Part shown: piece after piece, positions 1,693 through 58,792 of the stretch
Numbering within the stretch: position 1 is the stretch's first letter
Layout of the letters: every line of letters begins with the position of its first letter
Sequence record: PQ306574.1
Length of the DNA stretch: 64,000 nucleotides
From: Escherichia phage vB_EcoM_PTE-Eco09
Reading direction: 5' to 3' (one strand)
Position numbers and translations under genes: made by a program
Notes under the pieces: generated by a model
The model's database searches: none
Told to the model about the DNA's origin: nothing
The model's input: only the letters and a program-made list of their open reading frames with translations

Positions 1693-4635
1693 TTAATTCT
1701 TTTTAAGTTCCGCTAGTTCAGCTTTAACGGCTTTCAATTCTTCGCTCATTTCCTGAAACGCCTTAATTAAAAGAGCGTTGACAGCGGAGTTAGAAATTGT
1801 TAAGATCTCTTCTGGATTATCTGGATCGCCGATCTTAGAAGTTGTTACGGCTTCCGGCAATTCTTTTTCAAGATCCTGAGCAATAATACCAACTTCATGA
1901 GCAATGACAGTACGGTCGGTTAAAGATTTAACCTTGTCATAGGTGTATACCGTCAAGCGATTAACTTTATCGGTTGCATTCTCTTTATACTCTTCCTTGT
2001 TGATTTTAAGGCGAGCATCAGAACGAATATACACATCGTTAAAGTTACCATTGCGACCAGCTTGGAAATCACCGGAGGCGTTAAAGTCAAAGTTTGTGGT
2101 ATGAATATGAAGACGTGCCATAGCATTAGTAATAACACCACTAGGAACGTGTACACCCATTGCTGCGATGTGGTCGAAACCCCATTTGGTCGCTTTCCAT
2201 ACGTTATATGCGGAAGTTTGAGCATTAGGACAATCAACCAATAAGCCAGCAGCGCGAGTTTTCCATTCTGACCATGCACCACCTTGTACTTCTCCGCGAA
2301 TCAGGCCATTACCATCACCGGATACAGTGCCAGATTCCAACTGGATCATTTTATCCGCAAATTTCCACGCCTGGGCTTGTTTCTGACCACGGAAGCGAAT
2401 AACACCAGCATCATCGCAGTACATCAAGCCTAACTCTAAACCGTTTGGATCTCTAAACCAGATGTGCTTATTGCCAGTGCGTTTAAACTCAATATCAGCA
2501 CCGTTCAGGGTAATATTACCGCCAGTGTGAATTGCTTTAGGCTTAACAGTACCATTAATGCCAAACTCGATTAATTCAGTACCCGGACCACCCGCACGTT
2601 GAGTATACCAATGCCAGCCGCTTTCATCAGCACATTCAAATACTTGTTTACGAGCATCAGCGCCCCATGCACGAATATTGAAACTAGAAGTAGCTGTACC
2701 CTTACCCCAGCGAATCAGACCAGCAGATTCCAAATCACCGAAGAATTTAGTTTTAATCGCACCAGTTGCTAAAGTACGTTCAGTGGTGAAGTGAGCACCT
2801 TTACTATCTTCAAGCTGTATAACGTTATCACGAGCGTTATTGCTATCGCCCCAATGACTCAAACGGAAATAGTCGCGGGATTGTCCAGCACCAGCATCAA
2901 ATGTTAAATATTGGCCTTTAATGTATGTGTTTCCAGCAAAACGAGCAGCACGACTTGCACGTTCTAAGACTAATGCACCTTCTTTACCATCACCACCCAA
3001 AGTAACATTACCGCTACCCAGATTGTAAGTGAATGGACGATAGCCGTTCCAACCACCAAATTTATCATTTTCGGCAGTAGACAGAAGATATACGTTTTGA
3101 CCATCATTACGCCAGAATGCACCATAGTTACCGTAAATCATACGGAATGCATCACTGTTAGCAGCTACATATTGACCATTGGTGTATACAATTTTTGTTT
3201 TTCCTGTAGTCAAATTTACTTGTCCACTACCTTCCAAATCAAATGAGTTAGCACCAACATCATTACGCCACACAAAACCATCACTAGTACCATCCGCATG
3301 ACCGATATAACCACTACGTTGGTTTTTACCATCACGACGATCCCACCACGCCATATATGCAGCTTGACCAGTCTGTCGATGTAAAGTCATCGCATTACCA
3401 CCACCGTGCAATTCCATTTTACCAGTAATTACATATCCTTTATAATTACCCGGTATTGCACTATTAGAATCAATTCTAATAACTTCTGTAGAATCTGTAG
3501 CACCAGTAGCAAGACGATATACAGCACCCTGAACGGTTTCATGCCAGGTCATTTCATTATAGTTACTACGGAATTTACGAATATATTTTCGTCCAGTACC
3601 CCTATCATTACTCAAGTGAACAATATCATAACTGTTTTGTGTGTTATCGTCAAAACTCAACACACCTCGTTTGTTTTCGGTGTTGAAAAGAGTTACAGCA
3701 CGACCGCCAATAACATTATCACCAGCAGGACGTTCAGCAACAAAATCTGGAACGTCATGAACTACCAGATTAACACCAACACTTTTACCAAATTCAACAA
3801 TAACGTTATCAGTGTAACGCTGATATTTCACATAGATATCATAGTTATCACCAGAAGTATTAACAGCCAAAACATCAAATGATTTGTTTGTATTTCGGCG
3901 ATATGCAATAACGTTAACACCTTTAGGGCGACCATTTCCACTGCGAATAACAATTTCTACAATATCAACTTGATCGTATGCAGTAACGTTATATCCGTTA
4001 CCGCCATGAATACGGAAAAATACGCTAAGACCGTTTTGTGGAATCATTGCAGTTGCTAATTTAAAATAGCCTTCAACGATATCACTAGGAGATGTAGCAA
4101 GTTTAACGTTCTTAACAAACATACGGTCAACTTCTTGTTTGCTATAGACGTTCAATTCTCCTGGAGTTGGTTTATCACCTTCGTGATACATTTTATAGCT
4201 AAATGCTTTTTGACCTTCTCTATTATAGCCATAGGTTTCAACACGAGATCCAGCAGACGCATAACGGAAAGTAAATCCGCGACCGTGCGCTTTACCGGCA
4301 GAATGAGGAACGTTAAGAGTTAGATCCCTGAGTCCATCTTGACCATTGGTACGGAAAGCACCAAAGTAGTTAAGATCTCTCGCTGTCTGGTCTTCCAAAT
4401 AGTTAGCTGTTTTACTTAAGATATAATTATTACCTTTAACCTTACCCGCCATTGTAACATCGCGGTCATACACCGGAGGACAACTTAAATTGATAATATC
4501 ACCGGAATCATTTTTAGTAAGAAGATATTGATCCGCAAGGTTGATTGCCAATTCCCCCGGATTCATCGTACTAGCATCCGGTTTACGACCTTTAGTGCTA
4601 GTGCGTTTAAATTGGATTCTGCTTAAATCTGCCAT
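1693..4635 (-). CDS. 37: long tail fibre distal subunit gp37 with C-terminal intramolecular-chaperone (peptidase S74-like) domain
   Basis: 980 aa; N-terminus MADLSRIQFKR…GELAINL matches T4 gp37 N-terminus; C-terminal ~110 aa carry SDARLK…GIIAQDL…coiled-coil typical of self-cleaving chaperone domains of endosialidase/T5 pb1 type. Confidence 0.85.
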   Translation of the reverse strand: MADLSRIQFKRTSTKGRKPDASTMNPGELAINLADQYLLTKNDSGDIINLSCPPVYDRDVTMAGKVKGNNYILSKTANYLEDQTARDLNYFGAFRTNGQDGLRDLTLNVPHSAGKAHGRGFTFRYASAGSRVETYGYNREGQKAFSYKMYHEGDKPTPGELNVYSKQEVDRMFVKNVKLATSPSDIVEGYFKLATAMIPQNGLSVFFRIHGGNGYNVTAYDQVDIVEIVIRSGNGRPKGVNVIAYRRNTNKSFDVLAVNTSGDNYDIYVKYQRYTDNVIVEFGKSVGVNLVVHDVPDFVAERPAGDNVIGGRAVTLFNTENKRGVLSFDDNTQNSYDIVHLSNDRGTGRKYIRKFRSNYNEMTWHETVQGAVYRLATGATDSTEVIRIDSNSAIPGNYKGYVITGKMELHGGGNAMTLHRQTGQAAYMAWWDRRDGKNQRSGYIGHADGTSDGFVWRNDVGANSFDLEGSGQVNLTTGKTKIVYTNGQYVAANSDAFRMIYGNYGAFWRNDGQNVYLLSTAENDKFGGWNGYRPFTYNLGSGNVTLGGDGKEGALVLERASRAARFAGNTYIKGQYLTFDAGAGQSRDYFRLSHWGDSNNARDNVIQLEDSKGAHFTTERTLATGAIKTKFFGDLESAGLIRWGKGTATSSFNIRAWGADARKQVFECADESGWHWYTQRAGGPGTELIEFGINGTVKPKAIHTGGNITLNGADIEFKRTGNKHIWFRDPNGLELGLMYCDDAGVIRFRGQKQAQAWKFADKMIQLESGTVSGDGNGLIRGEVQGGAWSEWKTRAAGLLVDCPNAQTSAYNVWKATKWGFDHIAAMGVHVPSGVITNAMARLHIHTTNFDFNASGDFQAGRNGNFNDVYIRSDARLKINKEEYKENATDKVNRLTVYTYDKVKSLTDRTVIAHEVGIIAQDLEKELPEAVTTSKIGDPDNPEEILTISNSAVNALLIKAFQEMSEELKAVKAELAELKKN

Positions 4636-4675
4636 TTTATAAAATCCTTAAACGGTTATTAGAATAATATTATTT

Positions 4676-4700
4676 AGAAAAGCGGGGAGATAATCCCCGC
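4676..4700 (-). terminator. hairpin after gene 36
   Basis: GCGGGGA-GATAA-TCCCCGC stem followed by T-run on minus strand. Confidence 0.4.
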
Positions 4701-4705
4701 TAAAA

Positions 4706-6196
4706 TTAGAAAGTACCAAAATCAATCACCGCATTAAGTGGAACCGCTCCAACATCAGCCGGAGTAGGTTTATTACCTTCATGATAAAGCTGATAGCGGT
4801 CCACGGTTTGAGTATTGTTTCGAGAACGGAAAAACACGACCTTTGAGTCGTGGGTGATCCCCAGCTTTTCGGTCCCTTTAATATCACTAATGCGGTGAAT
4901 CATAGCAGTACCATCAGCACCGCTTAACGCCGCATAACAGTTATCCCCGTTATAGTTAGTTTTAGCTGTTCTAACGCCATTTGCAGCCGGAACAGTTAAC
5001 GGTCCTGTCATGGTATCGCCAGTTACGTTAACATAGCGAATATCGGCTAATTTACGGTGATCTACATAGTTCCATGCAGTCCAGGATTCATTAGAACACG
5101 AACGCCAGCACATCGGATGGTCAATAGATTCAGGATAATACACCTGAACAATTCGACGAGTACCGACCGCATCTTCTGGTCGATATACCATCAAAACGCC
5201 GTTATAATAGCTATCAGACGGTTTATTAGTACCTGACCCAGCATTTTCCACACGATAGATACCGCGATTAATAAGAGTGTTCCAATCAACGTTTCCAATG
5301 ATGGTTGGATTTGCTACCATTGATTTTCGCTCAAAGTAGCTCAAACGAACCAATTCATTAGGACCAGCGGGATCGTTTGTCGCCAACATTCTAGGCGCTT
5401 GCAAGTTACCTTCCATAATATCACCAGCACGTTTAACCTGTGCATCATTGGTGACATTGCCTAGCCCAACATCGGCTTTAGTTGGTTTATTGTTGGTGTG
5501 ATAAAAACGACCTTCTCTGCCATTAACAAAAATGGTAGGCTCATCTTTACTTCGGAAGACCAACGTATCAAGAACGTTACCATAATAGATCTTAGTCGCA
5601 TCAAAATTAATTAAATCACGTTCCCTTGCAATTAATTTCGAATCAACCGATAGTTTAACAGTGACAGTGTTTAAATTATACGTTCCTGAGAGAGTATCAC
5701 CGCGACGGGAAACTAAATCCAAATCATTATTCGTTGGTTTATTAACAGGGCTATAGACACGTTGACCTGTGTCTTTAATGGTTGTCCCTTCGATAGTCCC
5801 TTTAGACTTAAATTCGCCCGTTGTGGTGTCAATATACGCCATAATAACGCCATCACGGGCATTAACAAAGCCGATTGACTTCCATGAATGCAAACCCCAG
5901 CTTACGCCGTCAAAATTAGCAGCGTCGCTCTGACCTTTAAAGATACCATTCTTTTTGGTTTCTCCAGCCGATGCGCTACCTACGCTTAAACCTTCCTCGA
6001 AATGAACTTGCTTTTGAAATGTGCCACCTTCGGATGCACTAACAGCATCAAAATCGGTAGCCGAAGGTCTATCAAAAGCGGTATAGATTTTATGACCTTT
6101 GTAGAAAAGCTGATCCCCCGCTGGCTGGATCGTCAAGTTTCCTTGCGTCCAAATGGGAGATCCACCTACAGTAGATCCATATTTCAAATCTGCCAT
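4706..6196 (-). CDS. 36: long tail fibre subunit gp36 (enlarged, 496 aa)
   Basis: N-terminus MADLKYGSTVGGSPIWTQGN…PAGD matches T4 gp36 N-terminus; about twice T4 gp36 length. Confidence 0.8.
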   Translation of the reverse strand: MADLKYGSTVGGSPIWTQGNLTIQPAGDQLFYKGHKIYTAFDRPSATDFDAVSASEGGTFQKQVHFEEGLSVGSASAGETKKNGIFKGQSDAANFDGVSWGLHSWKSIGFVNARDGVIMAYIDTTTGEFKSKGTIEGTTIKDTGQRVYSPVNKPTNNDLDLVSRRGDTLSGTYNLNTVTVKLSVDSKLIARERDLINFDATKIYYGNVLDTLVFRSKDEPTIFVNGREGRFYHTNNKPTKADVGLGNVTNDAQVKRAGDIMEGNLQAPRMLATNDPAGPNELVRLSYFERKSMVANPTIIGNVDWNTLINRGIYRVENAGSGTNKPSDSYYNGVLMVYRPEDAVGTRRIVQVYYPESIDHPMCWRSCSNESWTAWNYVDHRKLADIRYVNVTGDTMTGPLTVPAANGVRTAKTNYNGDNCYAALSGADGTAMIHRISDIKGTEKLGITHDSKVVFFRSRNNTQTVDRYQLYHEGNKPTPADVGAVPLNAVIDFGTF

Positions 6197-31495: not shown

Positions 31496-31660
31496 ATGAA
31501 AACTATGAATGTAAACATCCACGAAATCCATACCGAAGTATTCACCGAAGAAGACCAGTTTGGTGTATGGGTAAATCCTCATTCGATTACTATCGATATT
31601 CCTAATGACGATTATGATCCGTTCTCTCTGATTAGCGAGATTAGTTTTAATGACTTCTGA
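31496..31660 (+). CDS. hypothetical small acidic protein (54 aa)
   Basis: MKTMNVNIHEIHTEVF…; SD AAGGAA; hand-derived. Confidence 0.3.
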   Translation: MKTMNVNIHEIHTEVFTEEDQFGVWVNPHSITIDIPNDDYDPFSLISEISFNDF

Positions 31661-32129
31661 AATTGATATCTATGCGGGTGGACCTTATCCATCGGGTGAA
31701 TTGAGTAATTTCAATAAAAGACCATTCCGTCTATTTGGTTGCGATATTAACAGCACAGAAGGATTTTTACAGGGGCTAAGATTTAAGAACCCTCAGAGAC
31801 AAAGAGAAATCTTTTTGATGCACGGTGGCAAAGCAAAAAGAACCGGAAGAACTGAAAAGATTGAGAATCACCTGTTATATTTTCAGGGTCGCCAGATTCA
31901 TCGAATGAGTGAGCATTATTACAGACTGGTACATCTGGCATTTGTTACGATGGCACGGAATAACCCAGAATTTTGTAAAGCATTACTCGCTACCGGAAAT
32001 AAGAAATTACGTCATAGTATAGGTGGAACTGATCCGTTAAAGACTATATTGACTGAATCGGAATTTTGTAGTATCCTCAATGATATTCGTGAACGTTTAA
32101 CAAAACGAGGTGAAAATGTCAATTCTTAA
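31650..32129 (+). CDS. NADAR (YbiA/DUF1768)-like domain protein
   Basis: 159 aa; motifs in NADAR order (GELSNF; STEGFLQGLRF; GGKAKRTGR; ALLATGNKKL-HSIGGTDP). Confidence 0.5.
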   Translation: MTSEIDIYAGGPYPSGELSNFNKRPFRLFGCDINSTEGFLQGLRFKNPQRQREIFLMHGGKAKRTGRTEKIENHLLYFQGRQIHRMSEHYYRLVHLAFVTMARNNPEFCKALLATGNKKLRHSIGGTDPLKTILTESEFCSILNDIRERLTKRGENVNS

Positions 32130-51127: not shown

Positions 51128-51142
51128 TTGAGGTGTTTTATT

Positions 51143-51550
51143 ATGGATCTGAATGAACTAAAAGACCAGCTTGACGCTGACGTCAAGATCGACGCAACAA
51201 AGCTACAATGGGAAGCACTTAATAACCCTGTAGTTTACTCTAAATGGCTGCGTGTGTATAGTGAAGCAAAGCGCGAGATCATTGCGCTGGAAGCAAAGAA
51301 AAAGAAAGCCACAAAAAATAAACTTGACTTTTACACTAATCGTAGTGATGAATGGTGTAGAGTGGAGTACGCCACATCAGAATTGAAAGTTGTGATGGCG
51401 GCAGATGATGATATCCTACCATTGGATACAAAAATTGCTTATTATCAAATGGTTATGGATTTTGCTGGCAAGGCTCTTGATATAATCAAATCACGAGGAT
51501 TCGCGATCAAGAATGCTATAGAGTTGCGTATGCTTGAGTCTGGAAAGTAA
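51143..51550 (+). CDS. uvsY: recombination mediator UvsY
   Basis: About 135 aa helical protein right after gene 25 as in T4; start at ATG MDLNELK. Confidence 0.65.
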   Translation: MDLNELKDQLDADVKIDATKLQWEALNNPVVYSKWLRVYSEAKREIIALEAKKKKATKNKLDFYTNRSDEWCRVEYATSELKVVMAADDDILPLDTKIAYYQMVMDFAGKALDIIKSRGFAIKNAIELRMLESGK

Positions 51551-51580
51551 GACACTAAATATATGCAGGAGGAAGGATTT

Positions 51581-51754
51581 ATGACTTGTATTTGTGCTGT
51601 ATGTAAACAGCCAATCGAAATGGCGTTGGCTGTTAAAATCGAAAATCATGTTGTTCATCCGGGATATTGCGAAGAATTTGCAAGCCGGAATCATTTGAGC
51701 GAATCAAGTGCAGAAGAACAAGAACAACTGGTAGAAACTACTTTGATTCTCTAA
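51581..51754 (+). CDS. small Cys-containing protein (57 aa), position of T4 uvsY.-1/-2
   Basis: SD GGAGGAAGG then ATG; MTCICAVCKQP…. Confidence 0.45.
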   Translation: MTCICAVCKQPIEMALAVKIENHVVHPGYCEEFASRNHLSESSAEEQEQLVETTLIL

Positions 51755-51792
51755 AGGAATTTGTTGATAACCGATTTTAATTGGTTTATTTC

Positions 51793-51817
51793 GCCCCATC
51801 AATGATGGGGCTTTTTT
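51793..51817 (+). terminator. rho-independent terminator
   Basis: CCCCATC-AAT-GATGGGG followed by TTTTTT. Confidence 0.6.
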
Positions 51818-51832
51818 GTATCCGATGATTTA

Positions 51833-52069
51833 TTAAAAATCCTCTTCCGGCTCCTCTTCCGGCTCATTTTCACTCTCTAACTGTTTTCTTCGACCTGCGA
51901 TTGCATCACGAATAGAGATATCATCTGACGGTTTGAGATCGGTCTCTTTCTTGCGCTTTTCATAATATTTTTCAAGCTCGTCCAAACCTTCCATAGTATT
52001 ACAAGAATAGATTTTATTCATGAAACCATCAATAACCGCCTCGGCTAAGAATCGTTTAAAACTAATCAT
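51833..52069 (-). CDS. small acidic protein in the position of T4 UvsW.1
   Basis: 78 aa ORF directly downstream of uvsW on the same strand. Confidence 0.5.
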   Translation of the reverse strand: MISFKRFLAEAVIDGFMNKIYSCNTMEGLDELEKYYEKRKKETDLKPSDDISIRDAIAGRRKQLESENEPEEEPEEDF

Positions 52070-52111
52070 TTTTAATCTCCGTAAAAATAAGGGGCATACA
52101 GCCCCTATTTA

Positions 52112-53668
52112 TTAAATTTCGATTGTTTTGGTTGAATAATCGAATTTATCTTCGTTGTACACTCGAACCCTTTCTATGCCGTGCTTAGTTGCGTAATTGA
52201 GATGACTATATTGCTTCTTAGCGGTCTTACTCTTTGTCTTTATACCCAACAAATCAATAATATCCCATACATAAGCAATATCCTTAGAACCATGCTTACG
52301 CAATGCACGACCAATACTTTGACGAACAATAGTAGACTCTTTGACAGGATGACCGAAAATTACATGGTGTAAGTTCTTGATAGAAACGCCAGTAGAGAAA
52401 ACGCCGTAGGAGGCGACGCAAATGATCCCGGTCTCTCCTTCCGCTAATTTTTTGAACTCGTCTCGTTCCGCAGTCTTAACCCCACCATCAATGTAGTAAA
52501 CCTTATCATGTACCTTCTGTAAGGCTTCATACATCATTTTTCCGTGTTTAGTGTTGCGAAACATTAAAAAGACGTTTTCGTTCTTCTTAGCGAGTTTTAG
52601 TGCCAAATTACACACAAACTTATTCCGTCTGCCGTGTGAAGTTATATATTTGATCTCTTCCGCGTATTCTTTCCCCTTAATAGCCGCGCATTCATCATCA
52701 GCATATTTTAGGAATAGACAGTTGATTTTCAGTTTTGTAACTTGTCCTTCATCCATAAGACGATCAATACTTACGATCCTAGATATATCTCCAAACAATC
52801 CAACGTATTGCAAAGCATTACACTTACCCTCACGAGGTGAACCAGTCATACCAATCTTAAATTGGCAATGAGTCATATCATTTACAATATTTTGAAGGTT
52901 TTTAGCGGTTGCTTTGTGACATTCATCGACAATAACCATTCCGTATTGCTGGAACCACTCTTTAGGCATCTTACATGCAGATTGCCAAGTTGAAACAGTT
53001 ATCAATCGTTCCCCCGGATGTTTTTGGCTACCACTCATCATTGTATGGATAGCCTCAAAAGGGAATAGCCTATAATCAATGAAGTCATCACGCATCTGGA
53101 GAACAAGAGAAGTAGTTGGAACAATGATTAACACCTTTCCCTCGTAGTTTTCCAGATACCATCGAGATAATAAACAAGCAATCAAACTTTTACCAGCAGA
53201 AGTAGGCAAAACTAACATTCTACGACGATTATGTATACCCTGAAATACAGCTTCACTTTGATACCAGTGAGGGGTGATCTTATTAGCGCCAGAATATATC
53301 GCCAACGAACCGATCCAACTGTCAATGTCTTCTTTAGTGATTTTCTCCTTTTCCAGAAGACGGGGATCAATCCAAACAGAATAGCTCATATTCTTAGCAA
53401 AGATACCCAAAGTTTTGATCAGTCCGATAGGAAGAGTGTTTTCATAGGTAAATAGCCGGATTCGCCCATCCCATTGCCCGTAGCGATAACGAGGATTAAA
53501 TCTTGCACCTTCAATCTCAAAAGAAAAATAGTCTCGTAGTTCCATAGATATTGAATCAGAGCATTCAATTTTAACAAAACTATAATTCATAAAATGCACA
53601 TGAATATCTTGCATCACATCACCTTTTAACAAGTTTTCCAAGAACAAAACCATCAGGAGGGGTGTCAC
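52112..53668 (-). CDS. uvsW: SF2 DNA helicase UvsW
   Basis: 518 aa; Walker A (LPTSAGKS), DExH (VDECH), helicase C-terminal motifs; T4 UvsW size and neighbourhood. Confidence 0.8.
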   Translation of the reverse strand: MTPLLMVLFLENLLKGDVMQDIHVHFMNYSFVKIECSDSISMELRDYFSFEIEGARFNPRYRYGQWDGRIRLFTYENTLPIGLIKTLGIFAKNMSYSVWIDPRLLEKEKITKEDIDSWIGSLAIYSGANKITPHWYQSEAVFQGIHNRRRMLVLPTSAGKSLIACLLSRWYLENYEGKVLIIVPTTSLVLQMRDDFIDYRLFPFEAIHTMMSGSQKHPGERLITVSTWQSACKMPKEWFQQYGMVIVDECHKATAKNLQNIVNDMTHCQFKIGMTGSPREGKCNALQYVGLFGDISRIVSIDRLMDEGQVTKLKINCLFLKYADDECAAIKGKEYAEEIKYITSHGRRNKFVCNLALKLAKKNENVFLMFRNTKHGKMMYEALQKVHDKVYYIDGGVKTAERDEFKKLAEGETGIICVASYGVFSTGVSIKNLHHVIFGHPVKESTIVRQSIGRALRKHGSKDIAYVWDIIDLLGIKTKSKTAKKQYSHLNYATKHGIERVRVYNEDKFDYSTKTIEI

Positions 53669-54350
53669 CGCGTTTCACGACCTTATTAACTACCCCGTTG
53701 TTATACCACTTACTACCAGTATGAAAATCGTTAAGCCTTGCTACACGCTCGGCGAGAGCACCGGACTCACGATCCTTTTGGACTTGTCTTAGACACATTT
53801 CCCTGTTAGCGGCTTTGCGTTCCTCCGTCCATTCTATATGGTCCCACCCAACATGTAAATTACCCTTGACGAATCCGTCAGGTGGAGTTTCTCCATCTCG
53901 AACTCGTATAGATTTAACACCGTCGTTGTACCATGTGCTGCCGGAAACACTATCTCGCATACCTACTATTGCTTTTTTTAGTTTTCCAGTTTTCATATCA
54001 CGTTCTACGCGCTCTTTGGCAGAAGAAGACATTTTAGCGCGTACAGAGTCTGAGTATACCTGGTCTCCGTCATAACGACCGCCAGTAACTACATTATAAT
54101 AATTGGGATCTTTTACAATGTCAACAGTGACAAGTTCTTTTTCGTATAGGTAAGCATCTTGCTCGGTATCAAACATTTTTAATATGCGCTTCTCGAAGTT
54201 CTCAATGCCATATTTTTCAAATGCAGCACGAAGAAGGTCACCAGACCCCATATATCCATCATGCATATTGTTAGTAGAATGTTTACCTATATACAATTTG
54301 CCGTTTACAAGATTCTTTATCTCATAAACATAATGAAATCTTTTAGCCAT
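53619..54350 (-). CDS. GIY-YIG homing endonuclease (Seg-like) with two C-terminal DNA-binding repeats
   Basis: N-terminal YVYEIKNLVNGKLYIGKH; two ~30-aa repeats (WYNDGV…RDGETPPDGFVKG); 3' end overlaps uvsW start. Confidence 0.7.
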   Translation of the reverse strand: MAKRFHYVYEIKNLVNGKLYIGKHSTNNMHDGYMGSGDLLRAAFEKYGIENFEKRILKMFDTEQDAYLYEKELVTVDIVKDPNYYNVVTGGRYDGDQVYSDSVRAKMSSSAKERVERDMKTGKLKKAIVGMRDSVSGSTWYNDGVKSIRVRDGETPPDGFVKGNLHVGWDHIEWTEERKAANREMCLRQVQKDRESGALAERVARLNDFHTGSKWYNNGVVNKVVKRGDTPPDGFVLGKLVKR

Positions 54351-54422
54351 AGTAAAAATCTCCGTATGCAATAAATACAGTATACAAATATTTATACAAA
54401 CACCCCCAATCAGGAGAATAAC

Positions 54423-57352: not shown

Positions 57353-57790
57353 ATGAAATTCCGTAAAAACCACGTAGCAATGAAAAAGGCAATGTTCGAA
57401 GCATTCAAAGCAGTTGATCAGGGCGGTGTTACTCTGATTGAGCAAATTAATGTTGATGTTTGGCAATCTCCGGCGATCACCTGCTCCCGTCTTGCTACGG
57501 CTGGCCTTCTGAAAGTTCACAGCTCTACCGCATACGACGAAGCATTGCAAGTCATTAAGGCTTTTGCGGGAGACGTTACCAGCAAGTGGGTCTATGTGAA
57601 TAAAGGTGAAATTGCGGTTGCTCACGTAGGCAACAATATTCAGATGGAAATCAAGATTAAGGAAGGGTCTAAACGCAATCAGATGCTTGTTCGATTCCAA
57701 CCATACAAAACTAACGTAGTGCCGGATGATCTGATCATCTCTAAGAGTAATGTTACCATTCGCCGAAATCAGATCGTTATCAACAAATAA
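57353..57790 (+). CDS. hypothetical protein (145 aa)
   Basis: ATG ORF with SD GAGGTGA. Confidence 0.5.
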   Translation: MKFRKNHVAMKKAMFEAFKAVDQGGVTLIEQINVDVWQSPAITCSRLATAGLLKVHSSTAYDEALQVIKAFAGDVTSKWVYVNKGEIAVAHVGNNIQMEIKIKEGSKRNQMLVRFQPYKTNVVPDDLIISKSNVTIRRNQIVINK

Positions 57791-57798
57791 TTAACATT

Positions 57799-57824
57799 AG
57801 CCGTCCTTCGGGGCGGCTTTTTTG
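57799..57824 (+). terminator. rho-independent terminator with UUCG tetraloop
   Basis: AGCCGTCC-TTCG-GGGCGGCT followed by TTTTTT; covaries with the 56643 terminator. Confidence 0.65.
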
Positions 57825-57825
57825 T

Positions 57826-58200
57826 ATATGTTATTAACATAATTTTAGTTTACATGTGCACAATATTAATACTGTTTGATTAAATTATGATCAAAACGAA
57901 GAAAGATCTTTAGAACATAGAAAATGTATCTTTGGTTAATTATTAATCACTACATATTGTAACACAAATGTTATACTCCGTAGGAGTTCGCGAAGCGATA
58001 TCCTTTTGTGTAGTTTTTACATGTATGATTAAATTATGATCAAAACGAAGACTTATCTTATAGAATAATAAAAATTTGTTTCGAACATTTATTAATCAAT
58101 TACTGGAAGTGTTTTTAATGCTCGCTGTGCTCGCTTCCGCTACGCGGATACTTGTATTTGTTATTAACTTGTAGTATGATATTGCTTTCTATGGAGGAAA
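57826..58200. repeat. AT-rich intergenic region with two ~45-nt direct repeats
   Basis: TACATGT-GATTAAATTATGATCAAAACGAAGA at about 57850-57905 and 58017-58052; GTTATTAAC at 57828 and 58160; TTCGCGAA palindrome. Confidence 0.5.
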
Positions 58201-58204
58201 TATT

Positions 58205-58792
58205 ATGTTTGACCAGTTACAAGATCTATTTGGAGTAAAACCACTTCGTAGATGTGCTTTAATCGGCTCTAGAAAAGCGCCTAGCGACATTTTGATAATG
58301 GCTAGTACCATTGGGAGGGTATTGTCAGAAAATCGCGTTGTAGCGCATTCTGGAGGGGCTTACGGTATGGACAATGCTTTCATGAAGTATTACGATCCAG
58401 AGTATAGAAAAATTTTCATTCCAAATTGGAAGTTTTATGACCACAAGCATAACGGTCATGATGTGATTGCATGGCAAACCTTAGAACAAAAAAATCTGGC
58501 GATGGATGAATTAGAACACGTTTATGATAATCCTCGTTCTATACCGTTATACATGCAAAATCTGTTTTCTAGAAATGTTGCTCAAGTCTTAGGTGAGACA
58601 CTTGATGATCCTGTAGATTGTGTGATATTCTGGGCGAAAGAAGTTAATGGAATCGTTTCTGGAGGAACTAGAATTGCTGTTTATGTTGCCCGTAGACATG
58701 GGATACCATGTTTTAACTTATATCATCAAGAAAATAGATCCGCCGTCGAAAAAATCTTGGGCGGATCTGACTTGTCTTGGTTAGATATTTAG
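58205..58792 (+). CDS. DprA/Smf-like (SLOG-superfamily Rossmann) protein
   Basis: 195 aa; IGSRKAPSD…VVAHSGGAYGMD and C-terminal IVSGGTRIAVYVARRHGIPCFNL match the DprA-type Rossmann core pattern. Confidence 0.45.
   Translation: MFDQLQDLFGVKPLRRCALIGSRKAPSDILIMASTIGRVLSENRVVAHSGGAYGMDNAFMKYYDPEYRKIFIPNWKFYDHKHNGHDVIAWQTLEQKNLAMDELEHVYDNPRSIPLYMQNLFSRNVAQVLGETLDDPVDCVIFWAKEVNGIVSGGTRIAVYVARRHGIPCFNLYHQENRSAVEKILGGSDLSWLDI

Follow-up and report, generated by a model that had tools for sequence, protein, structure and literature searches.

Escherichia phage vB_EcoM_PTE-Eco09 (sequence record PQ306574.1), hereafter Eco09, is a T4-like coliphage of the Krischvirus group (RB49/Phi1/GEC-3S type). We analyzed a stretch of 64,000 nucleotides of its DNA, referred to here as the window, which 58 phage records match at 90-99.6% nucleotide identity. 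The subject of this report is a gene in this window for a DprA-like protein, a small protein that is identical (100%) in phage kaaroe:

58205-58792, plus strand: coding sequence of the DprA-like protein, a stand-alone Rossmann domain of the SLOG superfamily and ortholog of Phi1 ORF164 (open reading frame listing, profiles, AlphaFold2 model, ratio of nonsynonymous to synonymous substitutions)

The open reading frame (ORF) encodes 195 amino acids from an ATG start to a TAA stop. An earlier note, written from the sequence alone, had described a 195-residue frame next to the capsid genes that carries GSRK, SGGAYGMD and a C-terminal SGGT segment, and the ORF listing and translation contain all of these as described. 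LIGSRKAP occupies residues 19-26 (GSRK 21-24), HSGGAYGMD residues 48-56 (SGGAYGMD 49-56), and the C-terminal segment VSGGTRIAVYVARRHGIPCFNL residues 151-172, with SGGTRIAVYVARRHGIPCF at residues 152-170. The position beside the capsid genes is likewise borne out: the gene lies tail-to-tail with the capsid vertex gene 24, which occupies the minus strand from 58793; their stop codons abut, and genes 23, 22 and 21 follow beyond gene 24 on the minus strand. We take 58205-58792 to be a real gene rather than a chance ORF because it matches the protein family PHROG 768, its length is unchanged in orthologs that are 93%, 71%, 57-59% and 39-50% identical, the strand opposite is closed by many stop codons, and comparison with the 86%-identical ortholog in the metagenomic locus L007 gives a dN/dS of 0.11 (dS 0.79, dN 0.089). 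The gene is under purifying selection.

The match to PHROG 768, "DprA-like DNA recombination-mediator protein", has an E-value of 1.3e-60 (205 bits) and aligns residues 15-187 with positions 4-181 of the 191 in the profile. RefSeq gives the same name to Phi1 ORF164 and its orthologs, and since both RefSeq and the PHROGs carry it, the identification is already known and is not new. The Pfam search that the earlier note had proposed as a check returned PF02481 (DNA_processg_A) as the sole match, although it is sub-threshold (22.3 bits against a gathering threshold of 29.6) and covers residues 15-60 only; 94 of 134 family members match PF02481 weakly. The score for TIGR00732 (NCBIfam dprA) is 14.4 against a cut-off of 191.15, and Pfam gave no match to PF03641 (LOG) or PF10686 (YAcAr) for the protein or among the 134 members. 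A single-sequence search of the PDB found DprA at E 0.5 only; the family profile was needed, and it recovered the DprA of Helicobacter pylori (HpDprA) at E 8e-6.

Structure prediction, the second proposed check, led to the same place. The AlphaFold2 model, built with 134 homologs, consists of one five-stranded Rossmannoid domain with a predicted local distance difference test score of 96 and a predicted template modeling (TM) score of 0.91. In a Foldseek search against the PDB the nine best matches were all HpDprA chains (E 2e-5 to 1.5e-4, TM ~0.55). The model displays the features by which SLOG domains are defined, namely a five-stranded Rossmannoid sandwich, glycine-rich loops after strands 1, 2 and 4, and an arginine in the following helix. 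Because the profile and fold searches all agree, membership in the SLOG superfamily is judged firm on sequence and model, and DprA is the nearest branch, by a modest margin only. The DprA-type Rossmann domain read in the earlier note is thus supported by every one of these searches, and no unrelated family, the outcome named there as contrary, competes for the protein.

The ligand pocket can be examined residue by residue against the structure of HpDprA with single-stranded DNA (ssDNA). In that structure two motifs that identify DprA domains, G-S/T/A-R (Gly50-Arg52) and F/L/Y-x-x-R-N/D (Phe140-Asn144), form a small, positively charged base-binding pocket that holds one base and the backbone of ssDNA, and the substitutions R52E and R143E lower ssDNA affinity 315-fold and 173-fold (Wang et al., PMC3950713). 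LOG proteins are recognized by a different signature, PGGxGTxxE (PMC3950713). The corresponding elements of the phage protein are as follows:

58265-58273, plus strand: DprA motif 1, G21-S22-R23, in the beta1-alpha1 loop (definition of PMC3950713, 134-member alignment)
58349-58372, plus strand: SGxAxGxD loop, S49-G-G-A-Y-G-M-D56, common to DprA (alignment, comparison with Smf)
58562-58576, plus strand: DprA motif 2, L120-F-S-R123-N124, in the pocket helix, followed by the family-specific, near-invariant Q127 (alignment, PMC3950713)
58661-58669, plus strand: G153-G154-T155, invariant, counterpart of the SG(S)xxTA loop of DprA and the PGGxGT loop of LOG (alignment)

Motif 1 is present in 128 of the 134 members and motif 2 in 120, and PGGxGTxxE is found in none (0/134). 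Invariant columns of the alignment are G21, G50, D56, R123, G153, G154 and T155; near-invariant are R23 (conserved in at least 90% of members), P26, S49, A52, G54, P73, N124, Q127, G130, A158, A162 and N171, among which P73, like Q127 and N171, is specific to the family. In the model all of these residues lie in strand-to-helix loops or at helix N-termini, the predicted ligand crest of the Rossmann fold. The counterparts in E. coli Smf are GSR114, FPRRN208 and SGLARGID, and the arginines of motifs 1 and 2 are 100 residues apart in the phage protein versus 95 in Smf. The position of the LOG catalytic glutamate is taken by Ala158 (S152-G-G-T-R-I-A158). This residue and the motif census show that the DprA ssDNA-pocket motifs are conserved, and that the LOG hydrolase signature is absent, its glutamate having been replaced.

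The family is large and carried mainly by phages. By tblastn, 1,353 of 50,697 phage records (~3%) encode a member, including phages of Klebsiella, Pseudomonas, Escherichia, Aeromonas, Vibrio and Acinetobacter, and the carriers comprise several T4-like genera, Vequintavirinae, Otagovirus and phiKZ-like jumbo phages. An exhaustive HMMER search at E <= 1e-3 yielded 4,319 clusters at 50% identity, mostly stand-alone proteins of ~180 residues. Structural TM scores within the family are 0.7-0.8, and the Krischvirus branch is at most 60% identical to any homolog outside Krischvirus. Plasmids rarely carry the family (30 of 72,556 records), so conjugative leading regions do not generally include a member. 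One plasmid-borne member, on the conjugative MOBF plasmid pNL1 of Novosphingobium (L103 3514-5513), lies three genes downstream of a gene for an SOS-response-associated peptidase (SRAP). SRAP proteins act on abasic sites in ssDNA.

The gene order around the DprA-like gene differs among T4-like phages. In Phi1, ORF164 is tail-to-tail with gene 24, past which lie genes 23, 22 and 21; it shares its strand with the upstream genes ORF165, 24.3, hoc and inh, and farther out come uvsW, which runs the other way, and uvsY. T4 has rnlB, the gene for RNA ligase 2 (Rnl2), at the place convergent with gene 24, and the 13-kb stretch of T4 around gene 24 and rnlB contains no DprA-like ORF, in keeping with the statement in the earlier note that the family is not part of the T4 core. 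In Karamvirus and Jiaodavirus the DprA-like gene is flanked by gene 24 and rnlB, and its start overlaps the stop codon of rnlB. In Slopekvirus the pair of rnlB and DprA-like gene is found elsewhere in the genome, away from the capsid genes. The overlap of stop and start codons was seen at L002 3006-4555, L004 2991-4546 and L003 2938-4552 (Karamvirus, Jiaodavirus and Slopekvirus). This arrangement suggests co-transcription of rnlB and the DprA-like gene in these three lineages only, and possibly coupling of the two. Neither the 64-kb window nor L007 contains an Rnl2 gene or a relic of one, and the 414-bp spacer ahead of the DprA-like gene in Eco09 holds no such relic either.

Several other features of this region were observed. 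A gene for a SegE-like GIY-YIG homing endonuclease (ORF 53622-54347, minus strand, within 53615-54368; PF19835 at E 3e-8, and PF01541) sits between uvsW and inh, which is the segE slot of T4; Phi1 is without the gene and its flanks there are 16 bp apart. The adjoining uvsW stretch (51139-53614) has 74% identity to Phi1, versus 93-98% for the next 6 kb, a pattern expected if the endonuclease gene arrived with flanking sequence. In L007 a 308-residue ORF (4548-5474, minus strand) lies between the homologs of gene 24 and gene 23, where the Eco09 window has only small ORFs.

A non-coding spacer of 414 bp (57791-58204) precedes the DprA-like gene and holds a terminator, two sets of direct repeats and a short stem-loop. 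Its expression signals are:

57799-57818, plus strand: strong intrinsic terminator that closes the upstream unit, the ORF165 homolog at 57353-57790 (terminator scan, sequence)
58136-58180, plus strand: possible early-promoter/stem-loop (PeSL-like) unit (weak consensus match)
58193-58198, plus strand: Shine-Dalgarno sequence GGAGGA, 6 nt before the ATG (read from the sequence)

The terminator implies that the DprA-like gene has a promoter of its own, and the protein is probably made from an early-type promoter in the spacer. The candidate unit consists of the stem-loop TCCGCTACGCGGA (58136-58148), TTGTAT (58152-58157), 17 nt, and TATGAT (58175-58180). The promoter scan listed none directly upstream of the gene; TTGTAT-17-TATGAT falls under the scan cut-off and was assigned by eye. 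PeSL cassettes have been described for Phi1 and RB49 (PMC2839356), and the layout of the spacer resembles them. The repeats of the spacer comprise two 38-nt direct repeats (57873-57910 and 58022-58059), 149 bp apart and 89% identical, each of which begins a mini-ORF ATGATCAAAACGAAG..., and a 17-nt repeat, TTGTAT(A/T)TGTTATTAAC, at 57822 and 58152.

To view the family beyond the T4-like phages, 80 viral contigs were fetched with a 22-member sub-alignment as the query and combined with the loci found earlier, giving 79 non-redundant loci; a query with the single protein had found 3 near-identical loci only. Of 157 adjacent genes, 136 have the same orientation as the DprA-like gene. No conserved partner emerged from the 79 loci, in which no BLAST cluster is adjacent more than twice, and among the 149 flanking genes searched with Pfam no family occurs more than twice except the T4-type capsid proteins Gp23/Gp24 (4 hits). 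These flanking genes are a mix of nucleotide-metabolism, DNA-repair and host-takeover genes. Within +/-8 kb the four most recurrent clusters are Macro (9 loci), Nampt (8), DUF4326 (7, of which two directly adjacent) and one unannotated cluster (7), and the next annotated ones are the ribonucleotide reductase small subunit (5), NADAR (4) and PRPP-synthetase-like proteins (4), counts that are descriptive, having no background or distance-matched control.

Individual loci add further examples. A Prs-like and NAPRTase pair is present in L011 and an Acb2/Tad1-hairpin protein in L017. In the metagenomic phage contig L018 (3737-6601) the DprA-like gene overlaps an upstream gene with the precomputed annotation Gad2 (anti-Gabija), a label that was not reproduced, as a Pfam scan of that gene gave nothing at E <= 0.01. 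A gene for an AAA/NACHT-like ATPase follows, beside topoisomerase II genes, and Thg1 is encoded 4.5 kb downstream.

Fusions are more telling than neighbor counts for this family. NADAR is fused to the DprA-like domain in 5 of the 150 top cluster representatives, three of which are also weak matches to the T4 gp30.3 family, and the same 150 include one fusion to DUF4326 and one to RecJ (DHH-DHHA1-RecJ_OB). A Macro fusion occurs in a protein on an Erythrobacter plasmid. Two polyvalent-type proteins, P0017 (1475 residues) and P0019 (1488 residues), combine DprA-like, YAcAr and LDcluster4 SLOG domains with a C-terminal NADAR; these are possibly injected counter-defense proteins.

The most likely role of the DprA-like protein is that of a single-stranded-nucleic-acid or nucleobase-binding accessory in DNA-level conflicts. 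We propose that it binds single-stranded nucleic acid by inserting one nucleobase into the conserved pocket, and that it would then act as an accessory factor on the ssDNA intermediates of the phage. We hold this proposal, binding and accessory role together, with moderate confidence. In the fusion proteins with AdfN-like NADAR, Macro, RecJ or DUF4326, the DprA-like domain would be a substrate-binding or targeting module, and in Eco09 the protein would play this part in trans, possibly together with gp30.3/AdfN, which has a gene of its own:

31650-32129, plus strand: gene for a gp30.3/AdfN-type NADAR protein, possible functional partner (PF08010 at E 9.5e-38, weak NADAR match)

T4 gp30.3 is AdfN, a NADAR ADP-ribosylglycohydrolase that counters DarTG1 (PMC11825919). 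The bases that DarT1 and DarT2 ADP-ribosylate in ssDNA are G and T, and NADAR (AdfN) and DarG-type Macro domains strip ADP-ribose off ssDNA bases (PMC11825919, PMC11543638). Cooperation of the DprA-like protein with the AdfN NADAR is one possibility, though a rather unlikely one. In its general form, the idea is that the domain recognizes ssDNA on behalf of the de-ADP-ribosylases of phages: with its base-binding pocket it would find ADP-ribosylated or exposed bases on phage ssDNA and pass them to AdfN or Macro; we consider this rather unlikely. If true, the domain would be an unrecognized component of counter-defense against DarT-type DNA ADP-ribosyltransferases. In a variant of this reading, a ligand derived from ADP-ribose would be bound or cleaved by the DprA-like domain alone.

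Several points weigh against the proposed model. In other SLOG proteins the ligand of the equivalent pocket is a free nucleotide or cyclic ADP-ribose (cADPR), so that motif conservation cannot separate an ssDNA base from a free nucleotide. Q127, which is polar, and N171 are near-invariant in the family and absent from DprA, and they hint at a more specific ligand. Dimerization is required for the function of DprA and of ShosA, a host DprA-like antitoxin (PMC3950713, PMC12961424). The NADAR, Macro, DUF4326 and Nampt neighbors fit the processing of soluble ADP-ribose derivatives equally well (compare the prediction in PMC9503650). The promoter assignment for the gene is weak, and literature searches found no experiment, binding or activity data for any member of PHROG 768.

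The main alternative, possible if somewhat unlikely, is that the protein acts in counter-defense on small molecules. Its SLOG pocket would either serve as a sponge for, or cleave, an immune signal or toxin that is a free nucleotide or derives from ADP-ribose (cADPR isomers, ADP-ribose derivatives, AMP) and so blunt NAD+/ADP-ribose-based or nucleotide-based host immunity. According to a prediction by Iyer et al. (PMC9503650), the SLOG domains of viruses, frequently joined to Macro, NADAR or DUF4326, sense or degrade ADP-ribose derivatives. The NADAR, DUF4326 and Macro fusions of the present family, the polyvalent proteins with YAcAr, LDcluster4 and NADAR, and the recurrent Macro, Nampt, DUF4326, NADAR and PRPP-synthetase-like genes agree with such a role, as do the contents of L011, L017 and, through its precomputed Gad2 label that Pfam did not reproduce, L018. 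A phage protein annotated "Smf/DprA", ORF83 of DruSM1, has anti-Avs type III activity (bioRxiv 10.1101/2024.04.14.589459) and is predicted to bind AMP, being without the DprA dimer and RecA residues (bioRxiv 10.1101/2025.06.06.658234). However, ORF83 probably belongs to another SLOG family, as judged from Seurat gp80 (YAcAr, TM ~0.45), and the LOG catalytic motif is missing from all 134 members, whose conserved residues are those that DprA uses for ssDNA. The NAD-related genes are scattered over the +/-8 kb rather than adjacent, in counts made with no background control, and DNA is what the fusion to RecJ suggests as the target.

The database name implies a classical recombination mediator, which would dimerize, coat ssDNA and load UvsX or the host RecA for recombination-dependent replication. 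DprA is nearest in both sequence and fold, its ssDNA motifs are conserved, a single stretch of 7 kb holds the gene together with uvsW and uvsY, and the DprA/Smf proteins of jumbo phages have been suggested to be extra ssDNA-binding proteins for recombination (Iyer et al., PMC7824862). The PHROG and RefSeq name, however, was transferred from profile similarity. Tyr173, the residue aligned with the dimer-interface Pro183 of HpDprA, is at a variable position of the family, and the SAM and DML1 domains are absent. Classical loading of UvsX or RecA is not needed for the proposed accessory role and is disfavored because the phage encodes UvsY, a dedicated UvsX mediator, and the family, which spans many phage groups, has no recombinase family among the 149 flanking genes of the 79 loci; the context evidence leans away from it, and we regard this role as improbable.

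A function as an RNA-repair accessory, in which the protein binds ssRNA ends or modified nucleotides and works with Rnl2, is suggested by the position directly after rnlB in Karamvirus, Jiaodavirus and Slopekvirus, with the pair kept away from the capsid genes in the last of these, and by rnlB of T4 in the same slot beside gene 24. An RNA ligase gene also lies ~3 kb upstream in Aeromonas phage G2, and Thg1 is nearby in L018. Against this, Eco09 lacks an Rnl2 homolog in the window and a relic of one in the spacer, RNA ligase does not recur as a neighbor outside T4-like phages, L002 and L004, both T4-like, being the source of the only two RNA_ligase hits in the 149 flanking genes, and adjacency to rnlB is explicable by shared ancestry of a hyperplastic region, all of which makes this explanation very improbable. 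Scarcely credible is an antitoxin mimic that replaces or disturbs ShosA/PsyrA of a host toxin-antitoxin defense, maybe by sequestering the triggering phage ssDNA: the antitoxin activity of ShosA, which binds ssDNA and RecA, needs ssDNA binding and is ssDNA-sensitive (PMC12961424), and PADLOC gave weak matches to PsyrA (E 4e-5) and ShosA (E 3.5e-4), but these are limited to the shared N-terminal 45 residues, and ShosA also needs dimerization and RecA binding as well as its SAM domain, a domain that the phage protein does not have.

The present result arrives again at an annotation that already existed; what it offers are testable hypotheses on the function of a large, phage-dominated family. 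The name "recombination-mediator" is probably too specific for PHROG 768. If the domain targets DNA for ADP-ribose-removing enzymes or binds immune nucleotides, it would be a widespread addition to the counter-defense repertoire of phages, and if this is true a misleading annotation on thousands of genomes would be corrected.

Comparison with known systems places the protein as follows. Members named DprA-like in PHROG 768 and RefSeq include Phi1 ORF164 and proteins of Klebsiella Slopekvirus and Jiaodavirus, Pseudomonas Pbunavirus-like and phiKZ-like phages, and Vequintavirinae; the Eco09 protein is a full-length member, and the Krischvirus branch is divergent, lineage-specific and uncoupled from rnlB, with nothing essential that differs. 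LOG proteins (cytokinin riboside 5'-monophosphate phosphoribohydrolase, PF03641) are set apart by their catalytic signature, and the SLOG sensor ThsA by its architecture, as the phage protein has no Sir2 or other effector domain. ShosA (PDB 8ZVA) comes from the host; besides a SAM domain it has one additional helix at the C-terminus, and its partners are a PRTase toxin and RecA, whereas the phage locus is without a toxin partner. The YAcAr/YspA proteins (PF10686) share the superfamily of the DprA-like family and, like its members, are encoded by phages as small, stand-alone proteins annotated "Smf/DprA", are fused to DUF4326 or NADAR, and co-occur with DprA-like domains in P0017 and P0019; they differ in their length (~130 residues), in their predicted ligand, AMP, and in structure (Foldseek TM 0.41-0.47, versus 0.7-0.8 within the DprA-like family). 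Seurat gp80, the only SLOG ORF found in that phage, matches PF10686 at E 5e-18 and the hidden Markov model (HMM) of the DprA-like family at E 0.02. The placement of ORF83 in a different SLOG family is probable and was judged through this protein of a congeneric phage. The anti-Avs phenotype of ORF83 was considered for the DprA-like family and found not to be transferable because YAcAr is a different SLOG family, distant in both HMM and structure.

The closest relatives in sequence and structure are the bacterial DprA/Smf proteins, represented by those of H. pylori (4LJK/4LJR/5MLL), R. palustris (3MAJ) and S. pneumoniae (3UQZ). Unlike canonical DprA, the phage protein scores below the Pfam and TIGRFAM cut-offs, and the HMM aligns to its N-terminal ~50 residues only. 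Its middle third (~74-114) has diverged, Q127, P73 and N171 have been added, and the dimer-interface residue is not conserved. It also does without the N-terminal SAM and the C-terminal DML1/winged-helix domains, which are common, not universal, in DprA, and its gene is carried by virulent phages, versus competence or SOS-related loci for DprA. Shared with DprA are the absence of the LOG glutamate and the order of the motifs, GSR, SGxAxGxD, [FLY]xxRN and G-[GS]-x-x-T-A.

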